DNA from: a virus
Taxonomy: Duplodnaviria; Heunggongvirae; Uroviricota; Caudoviricetes
DNA: 48,336 nt
Reading direction: 5' to 3' (one strand)
Virus record (IMG/VR): IMGVR_UViG_2874968258_000013
The notes under the pieces are model-generated. The model did no database searches. It saw only the letters and a list, made by a program, of their open reading frames with translations, and was not told the origin of the DNA. Positions within the stretch are counted from its first letter, which is position 1. Each line of letters starts with the position of its first letter. Both the position numbers and the translations under genes were made by a program. Positions 2,575-43,764 of the stretch are shown one piece after another.

Positions 2575-2649
2575 GTCCTCTTAGTTAAATGGATATAACG
2601 AGCCCCTCCTAAGGGCTAATTGCAGGTTCGATTCCTGCAGGGGACACCA
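2575..2649 (+). tRNA. argW: tRNA-Arg (anticodon CCU)
   Basis: 75-nt sequence GTCCTCTTAGTTAAATGGATATAACGAGCCCCTCCTAAGGGCTAATTGCAGGTTCGATTCCTGCAGGGGACACCA read directly; anticodon loop CT-CCT-AA. Confidence 0.92.
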
Positions 2650-6946: not shown

Positions 6947-7528
6947 TTACCCTATAGGTGCTACTGGCCATTCAATATCCGGTGCAGTTGATGTATCAAC
7001 ACGGTTCAGCAACACCCGATACTTTTTCCAGGCTTCCAGCAACAAGGTTTCTTTCTCCGTTGCGATCTCCAGATCCACAGCATCCTGAAGCGGCGCTATA
7101 TGCTCACTGGCTACCTGCATCAGGCTGTTTTTTGTTTCTTCCGCCTCCCGGATCCGGAACAGTTTTTCTGCTTCCGTATCCTTCACCCAGGCTGTGCCGT
7201 TCCACTTCTGAAACTCCCCTTCCGGGGATAACCAGGTGACATTTTCCGGTAATGAGCCGAGTTCAGAAATAAATAACGCGTCGCCGGAAGCCACGTCATA
7301 AACCGTTTTACCCCGATGATCTTCAACGAGATGCCACGATGACTCATCACTGTTGAAAACAGCCACGAAACCAGCCGGAATATCTGGCGGTGCAATATCG
7401 GTACTGTTTGCAGGCAGACCTGTATGAGGCGGAATATATGCGTCACCTTCACCAATAAATTCATTAGTTCCGGCCAGCAGGTTATAAATTTTTATGGTCC
7501 GTGCTTGTTCACTCATTCTGAATGCCAT
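6947..7528 (-). CDS. tfa: tail fiber assembly protein
   Basis: 193 aa, [22 protein letters not shown] typical Tfa N-terminus; follows stf. Confidence 0.85.
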
Positions 7529-39085: not shown

Positions 39086-39248
39086 GATTCCTCCTTGCTG
39101 CCAGTCGCAACCATTTTTTATCAACCAGGCTAGCGGTATATCCGAGCAGTGTTGGTATTTCGGATGGCTTCAGCTCAGGCTTACGCTTACGACGATTTGA
39201 TACTCTGTAGATGTGCCCGTTCATGACACGAATAAGCGGTGTAGCCAT
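39078..39248 (-). CDS. ninE: NinE
   Basis: 56-aa [59 protein letters not shown] translated by hand; TAATG overlap with ybcN stop. Confidence 0.75.
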   Translation of the reverse strand: MATPLIRVMNGHIYRVSNRRKRKPELKPSEIPTLLGYTASLVDKKWLRLAARRNHG

Positions 39249-39703
39249 TACGCCTCCTGCTTATCGCGCAGCTGCTGGTATTCACAGCTCTGCGGAATTG
39301 TCAGGTGGCAGCCGATATTCATCGCCCAGGCTTCGACTTTGCACAGGAAGATGTACATCTCGCCGGTTTCCAGCTCTGACGTATGGCGGAGGGATTGGAC
39401 GGTGGTGACCTCGCCGGACACGACATCTACACGGTCTTTGCTTTCGTAGCCGAGATAGGTGTGCTTCATCGCGTCTTTGACCCACTCAGGCGTAGCGAAG
39501 GTCTTGCCGCGGGCGATGAGATATTCGCTGATCTCCGTGTACCACATGTGGCTGAGCGCGTTCTGCGACAGGCTGCGCTTCTCGCGCCACGGCTTAACCT
39601 GCAGGCGTAAGCATTGCCCGGCATCCAGCAATGGCTGAATCTGCTGGCCGATGGCCGCGAAGTTACCGCGATGGAGTTTGATGCCGTCTACTGGCAGAGT
39701 CAT
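39248..39703 (-). CDS. ybcN: YbcN (DLP12-type nin-region protein)
   Basis: 151 aa, recalled YbcN sequence. Confidence 0.82.
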   Translation of the reverse strand: MTLPVDGIKLHRGNFAAIGQQIQPLLDAGQCLRLQVKPWREKRSLSQNALSHMWYTEISEYLIARGKTFATPEWVKDAMKHTYLGYESKDRVDVVSGEVTTVQSLRHTSELETGEMYIFLCKVEAWAMNIGCHLTIPQSCEYQQLRDKQEA

Positions 39704-39967
39704 ACGGCCTCCCTAACGGAAACCGCAGAATGCAGAAAATCGCAGGTGCATTTCTGCATCTGTGACAAGGTGATGAGTTCAGATTGTGGTCGCATTTAAG
39801 TCCCCTTAAATGCGCAGAAGTCACCGGAGTTGTTCAGGCTCCGATGAGAGGATTATGGCGGATTGATTACGATAAATCAAAACTATCTTGAAGCCAAAAC
39901 AGTGATCTTCGCTTTAAAAACCTTGTATACTTTCACCTAATCACAGCCAGAACTATGGATCTAACCA

Positions 39968-40345
39968 ATGACCAACAAAGAAAACAAAGATAAATATATT
40001 AACAAGTTCAAGAAAGAGCTTTCAAAATATATACAACCAACTGCTGGAGTGGACATTCAATTATTTAACTCTAAGGATGGTGGTGGTGTAATTAAAGCCA
40101 CTTTGAATAGAAGTGGAAAAAGAAAATCATCTATTGCTGGTAATTTTACTAAATTAGGTGAGGCAATTACCTCGAGTGGGCAGAGGGTTTTTGGTGGTGA
40201 TCTATCAAATGTGAATTTTTACGGAACAAATACGATTTTTGATGGAGATACAATATTTTTAATTAAATCACCTGATTCAGAGGAGTGGTCATCACAAAAA
40301 GCTTCCAAAGACGTAGAGGGCATCGTATTTGGAGGGAAAAAATGA
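39968..40345 (+). CDS. hypothetical soluble protein (125 aa, Gly/Lys-rich), first gene of a low-GC two-gene cassette
   Basis: AT-rich ORF with no recognisable family; stop overlaps next start (ATGA). Confidence 0.55.
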   Translation: MTNKENKDKYINKFKKELSKYIQPTAGVDIQLFNSKDGGGVIKATLNRSGKRKSSIAGNFTKLGEAITSSGQRVFGGDLSNVNFYGTNTIFDGDTIFLIKSPDSEEWSSQKASKDVEGIVFGGKK

Positions 40346-40770
40346 TTAACATTACTACTAAGGATGGCACTCAAGTCAGTGGTGAAGTAAGAGATCTAGT
40401 AATTCTTCTTGAAACTGATGGAAAAACGGTGTCTGATTATTTGCAGCCAATCCCTCCCAAAAAAGATACACACTGGAGCATGATTTTCATTCCGGTAGCA
40501 ATTTATATACTACTTAATCTTGTATACATTATTGCTCACCCATTATTTCCTGAAAAATATCTAAAAACATCAACATCTATATTTCTATTCATTTCCTTCA
40601 TATTAAGTGCAATAGTAGCATATTTTGTTTTCCATAAGCATAAATCTGCCACTCTATCCATATGCAGCTTAGTGTTCTTAGTGTTAATTGTAGGTGCTAA
40701 CGTAGGGTTTATCAGTTACAGCGACCTAACACAAAAAGCGACGCAAAAATTAGATAGTTTGTCTAAATAA
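40342..40770 (+). CDS. hypothetical small membrane protein (142 aa, soluble N-terminal 45 aa plus 3 predicted TM helices)
   Basis: hydrophobic stretches WSMIFIPVAIYILLNLVYII, SIFLFISFILSAIVAYFVF, LSICSLVFLVLIVGANVGFI; followed by hairpin 40778-40798. Confidence 0.55.
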   Translation: MINITTKDGTQVSGEVRDLVILLETDGKTVSDYLQPIPPKKDTHWSMIFIPVAIYILLNLVYIIAHPLFPEKYLKTSTSIFLFISFILSAIVAYFVFHKHKSATLSICSLVFLVLIVGANVGFISYSDLTQKATQKLDSLSK

Positions 40771-40932
40771 TTATGTTGCCATGCGAAGTATGCATGGCTG
40801 CATGTCTGCCTTCCATTTAAAATGGGCTAAGACCTATAACCCTAAATATTATTCTTTATTATCTTCTTTACCACTTCGGTGATGCTGCCAACTTACTGAT
40901 TTAGTGTATGATGGTGTTTTTGAGGTGCTCCA

Positions 40933-41108
40933 GTGGCTTCTGTTTCTATCAGCTGTCCCTCCTGTTCAGCTACTGACGGGGTGGTGCGTAACGGCAAAAG
41001 CACTGCCGGACATCAGCGCTATCTCTGCTCTCACTGCCGTAAAACATGGCAACTGCAGTTCACTTACACCGCTTCTCAACCCGGTACGCACCAGAAAATC
41101 ATTGATAT
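40933..41108 (+). pseudogene. insA: IS1 insA truncated by IS21 insertion
   Basis: InsA frame diverges after ...QKIID at the IS21 junction. Confidence 0.85.
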
Positions 41109-41209
41109 TGTCAGCGCCAGTGATATAAGACGGTAATTCGCCATTTGGATTGTCCGCTCCACCCAACATGTTGTTTCCTTAAGGTTCTCACACCAGAAAG
41201 GACATCAAC

Positions 41210-43179
<1,970 letters not shown>

Positions 43180-43260
43180 CGAAAGTATTTAGCGGGCATG
43201 AAAATGGCAAATAACGGTCAAACATCGTGGCGTTGACAATATGGCCATGAATGGCGTTGG

Positions 43261-43764
43261 ATGCCGGGCAACTGCACGCATTATGGGCGTTGGCCTCAAC
43301 ACGATTTTACGTCACTTAAAAAACTCAGGCCGCAGTCGGTAACCTCGCGCATACAGCCGGGCAGTGACGTCATCGTCTGCGCGGAAATGGACGAACAGTG
43401 GGGCTATGTCGGGGCTAAATCGCGCCAGCGCTGGCTGTTTTACGCGTATGACAGTCTCCGGAAGACGGTTGTTGCGCACGTATTCGGTGAACGCACTATG
43501 GCGACGCTGGGGCGTCTTATGAGCCTGCTGTCACCCTTTGACGTGGTGATATGGATGACGGATGGCTGGCCGCTGTATGAATCCCGCCTGAAGGGAAAGC
43601 TGCACGTAATCAGCAAGCGATATACGCAGCGAATTGAGCGGCATAACCTGAATCTGAGGCAGCACCTGACACGGCTGGGACGGAAGTCGCTGTCGTTCTC
43701 AAAATCGGTGGAGCTGCATGACAAAGTCATCGGGCATTATCTGAACATAAAACACTATCAATAA
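43261..43764 (+). CDS. insB: IS1 InsB (copy 3)
   Basis: 167-aa ORF in the right part of the split IS1. Confidence 0.85.

Follow-up and report, generated by a model that had tools for sequence, protein, structure and literature searches.

The 48,336-nt virus contig IMGVR_UViG_2874968258_000013 of IMG/VR, referred to here as the window, contains a DLP12-like prophage segment in reverse orientation. Its genes run from an ompC/nmpC-like porin on the plus strand through quuD, ylcG, rusA, ybcO, ninE and ybcN, all on the minus strand. This order is backed by an annotated, 100% identical locus in E. coli CV839-06, in which ybcN carries the annotation "YbcN family protein". In the operon direction, ybcN-ninE-ybcO-rusA-ylcG-quuD is a lambdoid nin operon, and the element under study, a module of ~180 bases, is its 5′ leader. 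The module consists of a promoter-like site, four RNA hairpins and a leader open reading frame (ORF) of 31 codons (Table 1).

An earlier note on this DNA had drawn attention to two palindromes between ybcN and a divergent low-GC cassette, and had read them as possible operator or terminator elements left from a missing early region. Both palindromes exist. The second, which had been quoted as 8 bp around a 6-nt loop, is real but has a stem two pairs longer, closing a 4-nt loop. In 5000 dinucleotide-preserving shuffles of 39704-39967, perfect inverted repeats with arms of at least 9 and loops of 3-20 occurred at a mean of 0.015, with P = 0.015 for at least one and P = 0.0004 for at least two, and the whole window holds only 10 repeats of that class (arms of at least 9). 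The palindromes are, in our view and with moderate confidence, pieces of one conserved cis-regulatory leader module and not leftover operators.

The module is widespread. BLAST located it in 2778 of 5426 complete E. coli genomes, about half, and in 37 phage records with hosts in Escherichia, Enterobacter and Klebsiella; the carriers are temperate phages that include 82, phi80, HK225, HK639, CobraSix and the Klebsiella phages. Many IMG/VR contigs recovered by pattern scans also carry it, and the comparison set comprised 142 distinct 260-nt versions. A pattern scan of genome contigs, whose gap of N{7,12} leaves out the commonest variant (gap 6), gave 58 matches, of which 8 (lengths 27-28) were candidate true ones; 6 were confirmed with the module, in Trabulsiella, Enterobacter (three species) and Scandinavium. 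In the comparison with DLP12-like prophages that the earlier note had suggested, the palindromes prove to be conserved, regulatory-looking elements shared with DLP12-like and other lambdoid phages. The module is no debris of a lost early region: it is intact, and its layout is identical to that in complete phages such as phi80, HK225, HK639, CobraSix and 82.

The conservation has a sharp edge. Information content per column rises from ~0.1 bit upstream to 1.3-2.0 bits exactly at the -35-like hexamer, and this hexamer (39880/39881) is also where alignments with cassette-free phages abruptly set in. The genes upstream vary with the carrier (replication genes, ren, eae-type, DNA polymerase III theta and others), and the gene downstream is of YbcN type or has other N-termini (MKQHYC-, MSIKFY-/VTVKFY-type), being annotated NinB/Orf in HK639. 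The sharp edge and the differing upstream genes indicate that 39700-39880 is a self-contained mosaic module on the ybcN side. The low-GC cassette begins beyond the module edge, with a GC content of 28-40% over 39900-40800 versus 53-60% in ybcN. The low-GC neighbour described earlier is therefore real, but the stretch is not purely intergenic, since the 31-codon ORF covers palindrome 1, and the elements do not serve both divergent units, since everything from the -35 hexamer on belongs to the ybcN unit.

Table 1. Features in and next to the leader of ybcN, in positions of the window
Feature	Position	Strand	Description	Basis or remark
Conserved module	39700-39880	minus	5′ leader of the nin operon
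-35-like hexamer	39875-39880	minus	TTGATT	consensus scan; also left edge of the conserved module
-10-like hexamer	39852-39857	minus	CATAAT	consensus scan; predicted start A39845
18-bp palindrome	39863-39880		TTGATT-N6-AATCAA	overlaps -35 hexamer and spacer
Hairpin 1	39821-39847	minus	9-bp stem UCAUCGGAG/CUCCGGUGA, 9-nt loop CCUGAACAA	missed in the earlier note
Linker	39812-39822	minus	GACUUCUGCGC	near-invariant in alignments A1 and A2
Hairpin 2	39791-39814	minus	GCATTTAA...TTAAATGC, 10-bp stem, GGGA loop 39801-39804	same as palindrome 2
Palindrome 2	39791-39800 / 39805-39814		CGCATTTAAG / CTTAAATGCG, 10 bp, 100% complementary, 4-nt loop	repeat search
Leader ORF	39700-39795	minus	31 codons (MRPQSELITLSQMQKCTCDFLHSAVSVREAV)	homologue of phage 82 orf33 and K-12 ylcH
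Hairpin 3′	39743-39762	minus	CAG-a-UGCA-GAAA-UGCA-c-CUG, 7 bp, GNRA loop	inside leader ORF
Palindrome 1	39730-39738 / 39751-39759		ATGCAGAAA / TTTCTGCAT, 9 bp, 100% complementary, 12-nt loop	repeat search
U-rich tract	39734-39740	minus	AUUUUCU	starts 3 nt after hairpin 3′ (cgAUUUUCU)
Hairpin 4	39703-39727	minus	UGCGGUUUCC-GUUAG-GGAGGCCGUA	in the minimum free energy (MFE) structure of the window RNA
ybcN	39248-39703	minus	NinB/Orf-family recombination mediator	NCBIfam PRK09741, E = 2.5e-78; Pfam NinB

Helices of the ybcN-sense RNA

The sense-strand RNA of 156 nt folds with z = -4.81 relative to shuffles, and z-scores for whole leaders were -4.8 (window), -4.3 (K-12) and -2.7 (a Klebsiella phage), besides a further value of -4.2. 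A MAFFT alignment (A2) misaligned hairpins 1 and 2 between stem classes, and RNAalifold recovered both only partly. Loop-anchored alignments were used instead.

Hairpin 1 was seen in 59 different versions, and almost every one of them forms a hairpin of 8-15 bp. In a loop-anchored alignment (A3; 50 distinct 29-mers, pre-filtered for at least 7 of 10 pairs), 94% of cells were paired against 63% in shuffles, none of 500 shuffles being as high; the pre-filter raises this percentage and leaves the compensatory counts unaffected. Two-sided changes were found in 138 cells, compared with 49 in shuffles, and 9 of the 10 pairs showed compensatory change. An anchored, ungapped count on the ybcN-sense strand gave 51 G·U pairs versus 6 A·C oppositions, and this excess indicates that the helix is selected in the ybcN-sense RNA. 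Calling the strand by MFE or by free-fold G·U counts is uninformative for this hairpin, with 30 of 59 variants more stable in sense; antisense folds gain extra loop pairs, and for this reason the anchored count was used. The loop consensus YCUGRRCAA is kept even where the stem has been replaced or cut to 5 bp. As far as sequence comparison can tell, such stem-independent conservation points to sequence-specific recognition by a partner factor.

Hairpin 2 occurs in 15 distinct variants that fall into six stem classes, all with the GGGA loop and 10-12 bp. Examples of its stem are CGCAUUUAAG/CUUAAAUGCG, GCGCUAAACG/CGUUUAuGCGC and GCGCUUUGAG/CUCAAAGUGC; in Klebsiella phages the hairpin reads GCGCCAAGUG-GGGA-CACAUGGCGC. 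All but one of these variants (14/15) are more stable on the sense strand. The leader ORF has the GGGA loop as its Shine-Dalgarno sequence, and its AUG (39793-39795) lies within the 3′ arm; the loop is annotated as a ribosome-binding site (RBS) in phage 82, and the hairpin as IR4 in phi80. Hairpin 2 does not resemble an intrinsic terminator, having an AU-rich stem followed by ACCACAAUCUG in sense and CAGAAGUC on the other strand, and a terminator scan made no call on either strand.

These patterns bear directly on the proposal that the palindromes are DNA operators for a dimeric regulator of ybcN and/or the divergent low-GC cassette. Their perfect dyad symmetry, their site between two divergent units and the label "possible regulator-binding site" that the 1996 phage 82 record places on hairpin 1 would all accord with operators. 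However, the half-sites vary while complementarity is kept, as seen in the six stem classes of hairpin 2 and the covarying pairs of hairpin 1; G·U is tolerated on the ybcN-sense strand and not on the other; and the most conserved parts are the asymmetric loops, not the arms. The palindromes also lie 30-125 nt downstream of the promoter-like site, within an ORF, and the same elements are found in phages without the cassette. We therefore consider operators at the palindromes quite improbable.

The sole operator-like part of the module is a different element, the 18-bp palindrome TTGATT-N6-AATCAA, which is possibly an operator. Over ~100 distinct upstream regions, the AATCA within the spacer is as conserved as the hexamers (1.25-1.9 bits) while the palindrome centre varies; the palindrome is not found in the Klebsiella phage version. 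Sites for FNR (TTGAT-N4-ATCAA), Fur and IHF, compared by eye through their consensus sequences, misfit in spacing or core bases.

Leader ORF and entry to ybcN

The leader ORF matches orf33/YlcH in position, in alignment, in the core SQMQKCTC-FLH and in its overlap with a NinB/YbcN-family gene; two core cysteines are replaced in the Klebsiella phages. It is annotated as a coding sequence in K-12, HK225, phage 82 and Chronis, and searches of Pfam, NCBIfam and PHROG gave no model for it. The frame is intact (29-34 codons, with a few outliers) in 135 of the 142 variants. Its stop overlaps the ybcN start as ATGA (39700-39703), and an ATGA or GTGA overlap is present in 130 of those 135. The three codon positions contribute evenly to the variable sites (15/17/18 and 19/18/20), and thus it is the frame that is maintained and not the peptide.

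At the far end of the frame, hairpin 4 is predicted to pair GGGAGG (39708-39713), which serves ybcN as Shine-Dalgarno sequence, together with the first base of the ybcN AUG. In 78 of 83 distinct junctions, across three classes, the predicted MFE structure leaves no base of the downstream gene's Shine-Dalgarno sequence unpaired. Given the stop-start overlap and the predicted occlusion of the Shine-Dalgarno, we propose translational coupling, in which ybcN would be accessible only to ribosomes that had already passed through the leader ORF.

Within the ORF, hairpin 3′ had 99.6% of cells paired and none of 500 shuffles was as high, but the hairpin sequence itself had served as one of the search patterns, which accounts for part of this invariance. 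In sequences free of this bias, all 7 pairs are kept in 11 of 14 distinct variants. The Klebsiella form, CCGaUGGC-GAAA-GCCAcCGG, contains three doubly compensated pairs, and other variants have UGCC/GGCA and CCG/CGG. The T-richness of the tract that follows is kept across variants (GATTTTCTG, GTTTTTTTG, AATTCTTTG, GGTTTTTTA) though the encoded residues vary, and a simple scan called a 5-bp version (TGCAG...CTGCG then ATTTTCTGCA) terminator-like.

Palindrome 1 overlaps hairpin 3′, and the two pairings are mutually exclusive. Across 131 sequences 93.9% of its cells were paired, yet covariation was no better than in shuffles: 194 of 500 were as high in cells paired and 70 of 500 in covariation score. 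Changes in its 3′ arm often break pairs. In the Klebsiella phages the 5′ arm has changed in a way that preserves hairpin 3′ while the 3′ arm has stayed the same, leaving two central mismatches. Palindrome 1 is at best an alternative conformer of the E. coli-type versions, and conservation of its 3′ arm probably reflects the U-rich tract that this arm forms.

One account of the core function is pyrBI-like attenuation within the leader ORF, whereby hairpin 3′ and the U tract would terminate transcription unless a ribosome is close, with palindrome 1 as the anti-terminator. A compensated, GNRA-capped hairpin before a persistent T-rich tract with varying encoded residues would suit this account, as would the terminator-like scan call, the location of the hairpin wholly inside an ORF whose peptide is not under selection, and the exclusive pairing by which palindrome 1 ties up the U tract. 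However, the U tract is interrupted and is offset by 3 nt from the stem, and no regulatory codons are evident. The anti-terminator pairing is broken in the Klebsiella phages and shows no covariation. In addition, the K-12 Term-seq tables (eLife 10:e62438) give no 3′ end at hairpin 3′ or the U tract, though K-12 has the weakest tract and low expression. Attenuation as the core function seems to us rather unlikely.

Promoter-like site, RNA 3′ end and proposed working

TTGATT-17-CATAAT matches 9 of 12 consensus positions. Among 96 distinct upstream regions, TTGATT is present in 74, the 17-bp spacer in 82 and CATAAT in 71, and the spacer sequence varies while the hexamers and the 17-bp spacing are kept. 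Alternatives to the -10 preserve nAnnnT (AATAAT, TATAAT, CATACT, and GATAAT in the Klebsiella phages). The Klebsiella phages have TTGCTT-17-GATAAT at the same place; there, hairpin 1 starts exactly 7 nt after the -10, and its 5-bp stem begins exactly at the predicted +1. In the phage 82 record X92588 the same hexamers are annotated as putative -35 and -10. This conservation suggests a sigma-70-type promoter at the mosaic boundary.

The linker downstream of hairpin 1 contains an experimental landmark, mapped by others in K-12. Term-seq of MG1655 placed RNA 3′ ends at 572349/572350 (+), 19 nt before ylcH (Adams et al. 2021, eLife 10:e62438, Supplementary files 1 and 3), and the homologous positions of the window are 39815 and 39814. 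The sequence context of these ends is ...CTCCGGTGACTTCTG^C, also given as ...GTCACCGGAGCCTGAACAACTCCGGTGACTTCTG^C. The ends are classed as "orphan, upstream ORF" and appear in two of the condition lists. They fall 5-6 nt after the 10-bp stem of hairpin 1. The terminator idea of the earlier note therefore holds in part: the module occupies the position of lambda tR2 and has an RNA 3′ end in K-12. Neither of the palindromes that it named is terminator-like, however, since the mapped 3′ end follows a third hairpin, hairpin 1, and palindrome 2 is without a U tract. A long-range pairing of the linker UUCUGCG with UGCAGAA was rejected, as variants that change GCAGAA (CTTAACGG) keep the linker unchanged.

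We hold it probable, though not firmly established, that the module is a structured 5′ leader that controls expression of ybcN and the nin operon. A sigma-70-type promoter at the mosaic boundary would give the module its own start. Hairpin 1 would form near the 5′ end of this transcript and within transcripts that arrive from upstream, and together with ACUUCUG would set an RNA 3′ end, either by termination or by stopping an exonuclease; the module may thereby end or mark transcripts from the variable accessory region upstream. Hairpin 2 would display the Shine-Dalgarno sequence in its GGGA tetraloop and lock the AUG in its stem, so limiting or setting initiation on the leader ORF. The ORF would matter as a frame, with the GAAA hairpin and U tract as a candidate translation-sensitive attenuator and palindrome 1 as an alternative, poorly conserved pairing of hairpin 3′ bases. 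As the stop of the ORF overlaps the ybcN start (ATGA) inside hairpin 4, ribosomes would reach ybcN only via the leader ORF.

A number of observations weigh against this reading. Part of the sequence set was gathered with patterns taken from the element itself, so the apparent invariance of those stretches is inflated. A transcription start at the promoter-like site was not found in the published transcription start site and operon datasets examined. Only 3-5 nt separate the -10 from the hairpin 1 stem in versions of the E. coli type, and a start at A39845 would lie three nt inside the 5′ arm of hairpin 1, yet the outer three pairs covary; this implies that at least some functional transcripts start further upstream. 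We think that both kinds of transcript exist, those with their own start and those arriving from upstream. The rusA gene in DLP12 is reported to require an inserted promoter for expression (PMC4118853), which implies that any transcription from the module site is not far-reaching in K-12; the same requirement also fits a leader that passes little in the prophage state. The 3′ end in K-12 is a weak signal, with low Term-seq scores of ~1600-1900 (eLife 10:e62438), and an exonuclease stop would account for it as well as termination does. Hairpin 1 is not a canonical intrinsic terminator either: its tail UUCUGCGC (UUCUG) is weak and was not called by the simple scan, and the Klebsiella form has a 5-bp stem and no U tract, so that termination cannot be the conserved role of hairpin 1. 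The absence of a K-12 3′ end at hairpin 3′ counts on the same side.

A more specific version is that the module represents an undescribed family of phage cis-regulatory RNA, in which a promoter-proximal hairpin, its invariant loop YCUGRRCAA read by a host or phage factor, would act with a translation-sensitive internal attenuator to gate the entry of both transcription and translation to the nin region. We put this forward tentatively, as less likely than not. If correct, the supply of recombination functions and of the late antiterminator Q would be gated independently of the N, put or Q systems.

Alternatively, the module might encode a small trans- or cis-acting RNA of ~31 nt, ending after hairpin 1, or of ~110 nt, ending at hairpin 3′, with the hairpin 1 loop as its functional part, either a seed or a protein-binding site; the shorter RNA would run from the promoter. 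The retention of YCUGRRCAA where the stem is replaced or shortened agrees with this, as does the discrete in vivo 3′ end in K-12. One locus (L176, 5640-5830) resembles a small RNA (sRNA) unit, with a strong terminator placed after the promoter and hairpins 1 and 2; in it the hairpin 2 loop is TCCC and not GGGA and the leader ORF is truncated. However, in every locus but that degenerate one the element continues into a translated leader with a gene behind it, neither a mapped 5′ end nor a target has been identified, and no Rfam sRNA family matches. We regard an sRNA as improbable. Next to the L176 unit lies a LexA-box-like CTGTATAAAAACACAG before a dinI-like gene.

The Rfam searches covered several scopes. 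At permissive thresholds over 39300-40300, no match fell within the leader hairpins (39700-39850), and none was better than E = 1.8 or above 21.1 bits. At the gathering score over the whole window, only IS009 (218 bits; 6987-7185, minus strand) and a tRNA (2575-2646, plus strand) were returned, both away from the module and unrelated to the leader. In five related loci all matches lay outside the module, and families including isrK, C4, AgvB, AsxR and STnc100 gave no match to it. The prophage sRNAs AgvB, AsxR and Pas were also rejected as identities for the module, as they map to the late region. Downstream of the Q-like gene of HK639, matches to STnc100, a tRNA and, weakly, isrJ were seen at 416-621, 967-1038 and 1048-1120 of the locus L005, as would be expected from the way sRNA-like elements are known to cluster around lambdoid late promoters.

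The module is also portable. In one locus (L154, 4790-5103) an unrelated membrane ORF of 74 amino acids (aa) is joined to the promoter, both first hairpins and the AUG, which drive it, and in four (L145, 500-3100; L033; L034; L119) two module copies 2.4 kb apart bracket cargo. The L145 cargo comprises, in order, a 31-residue hydrophobic ORF, a separate promoter, Rfam matches to c4-a1b1/isrK/C4 antisense RNA and a 147-aa antirepressor-like ORF. An isrK/C4 identity for the module was rejected, as these matches lie in the cargo between the copies and have their own promoter.

The duplicated and fused copies indicate that the module is also a favoured joint for mosaic exchange. It could even be conserved mainly as such a "boundary sequence" for exchange among lambdoid phages, with the hairpins incidental. 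This would account for the sharp homology edge at the -35 hexamer, the different flanking genes among carriers, the duplicate copies around cargo and the one locus in which the hairpin 2 loop is flipped. However, it leaves unexplained the compensatory changes, the strand-specific G·U pairs and the kept frame with its ATGA overlap, and the diverged Klebsiella copy keeps every structural element despite little shared sequence. As the main reason for conservation we judge it highly improbable; as a secondary property of the module it is compatible with the leader model.

The module is positioned as the gateway to the genes that lead to the late-gene antiterminator. If the leader model is true, it offers a handle on nin-region genes (ninB/ybcN, rusA) that would be kept low in the prophage and released in lytic growth, it explains the orphan Term-seq 3′ end of K-12, and it makes the module a compact, portable expression or insulation cassette that phages reuse for unrelated cargo. 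The covariation is strong enough for an RNA family, yet Rfam has no entry. For annotation, the "intergenic" region upstream of ybcN should carry a leader ORF and RNA structure features.

Beyond the module edge, the divergent cassette (39968-40770, plus strand) encodes a 125-aa protein and a 142-aa protein with many transmembrane segments. Their PHROG matches are phrog_18061 (E = 1e-84) and phrog_16940 (E = 2e-96), two families of unknown function; searches of Pfam and NCBIfam gave nothing above cutoff. The first cassette ORF is interrupted by an IS1 in CV839-06. Further along the window lie an IS1 insA-like fragment (40933-41136), a complete IS21-like istA/istB (41210-43179) and an insB-sized ORF of 167 aa (43261-43764), which suggests that an IS1 at 40933-43764 was split by an IS21 insertion. 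Further ORFs of insertion-sequence size extend up to 48 kb.

Relation to known systems

The orf33 region of phage 82 (X92588, from the 1996 rusA study) and the upstream region of ylcH-ybcN in K-12 DLP12 contain the same element, with base-for-base alignment. Besides the two hexamers, the phage 82 record marks the hairpin 1 repeat, an RBS at the GGGA loop and orf33 overlapping orf151/ybcN. The window has the phi80/HK225-type hairpin 2 and ORF N-terminus (MRPQSEL...), whereas the 82/K-12 type begins MRTYNPN.... Hairpin 1 was taken for a DNA site in the 1996 annotation, in contrast to the RNA hairpin that covariation shows here. In phi80 (NC_021190), IR4 is exactly palindrome 2 and lies upstream of a YbcN-family gene; the record gives it as a repeat only, with no function, and leaves unannotated the leader ORF that starts in its 3′ arm. 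In the records examined, the 1996 note and the IR4 repeat are the only prior labels.

Lambda tR2, the classical intrinsic terminator between ren and ninB, holds the same position as hairpin 1, directly upstream of a NinB/Orf-family gene at the entry to nin, and hairpin 1 is its positional counterpart. In contrast to hairpin 1, tR2 is canonical, its GC stem running into UUUUUAUUU, and it has neither a promoter nor a leader ORF, nor any sequence homology to the module. Hairpin 1 for its part has the weak tail UUCUG and a conserved 9-nt loop, and its terminator features are lost in the Klebsiella phages.

Hairpin 1 shares with the boxB of lambda nut sites a promoter-distal early-operon location, a conserved loop and a covarying stem. 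The hairpin 1 loop begins CCUGAA, as does lambda boxB (GCCCUGAAAAAGGGC). The boxA consensus is CGCUCUUA, and boxB is a hairpin with a 5-nt GNRA-like loop. A lambda-type nut site was rejected, as hairpin 1 has a 9-nt loop and not a GNRA-like pentaloop, and no boxA-like sequence lies between the -10 and the stem; rrn boxA, compared by eye through its consensus, did not fit. Phages that differ in their antitermination systems also carry the module unchanged, among them HK639 with its RNA-based put-type antitermination.

If the promoter is real, hairpin 1 would lie at or a few nt from +1, as do stabilising stem-loops of the kind found in the ompA 5′ untranslated region. A 5′-terminal stem-loop of this geometry protects mRNA against 5′-end-dependent decay. 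Such a stem-loop needs no conserved loop, whereas hairpin 1 has one, and its outer pairs, upstream of the predicted start, covary.

There is also a likeness to leader-ORF control regions, namely pyrBI- and trp-type attenuators and coupled upstream ORFs with a sequestered Shine-Dalgarno sequence. With these the module shares a short ORF whose translation rather than product matters, an internal hairpin followed by a U tract, a stop-start overlap and a sequestering hairpin before the main gene. It differs in having no evident regulatory codons or sensed metabolite, in that termination at its internal hairpin is putative, and in being phage-borne and mosaic. Its working would be that of a leader ORF with translational coupling, joined to a tR2-like hairpin. 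We conclude that the element is a gene-expression leader of an ordinary kind, and one so far uncharacterised.

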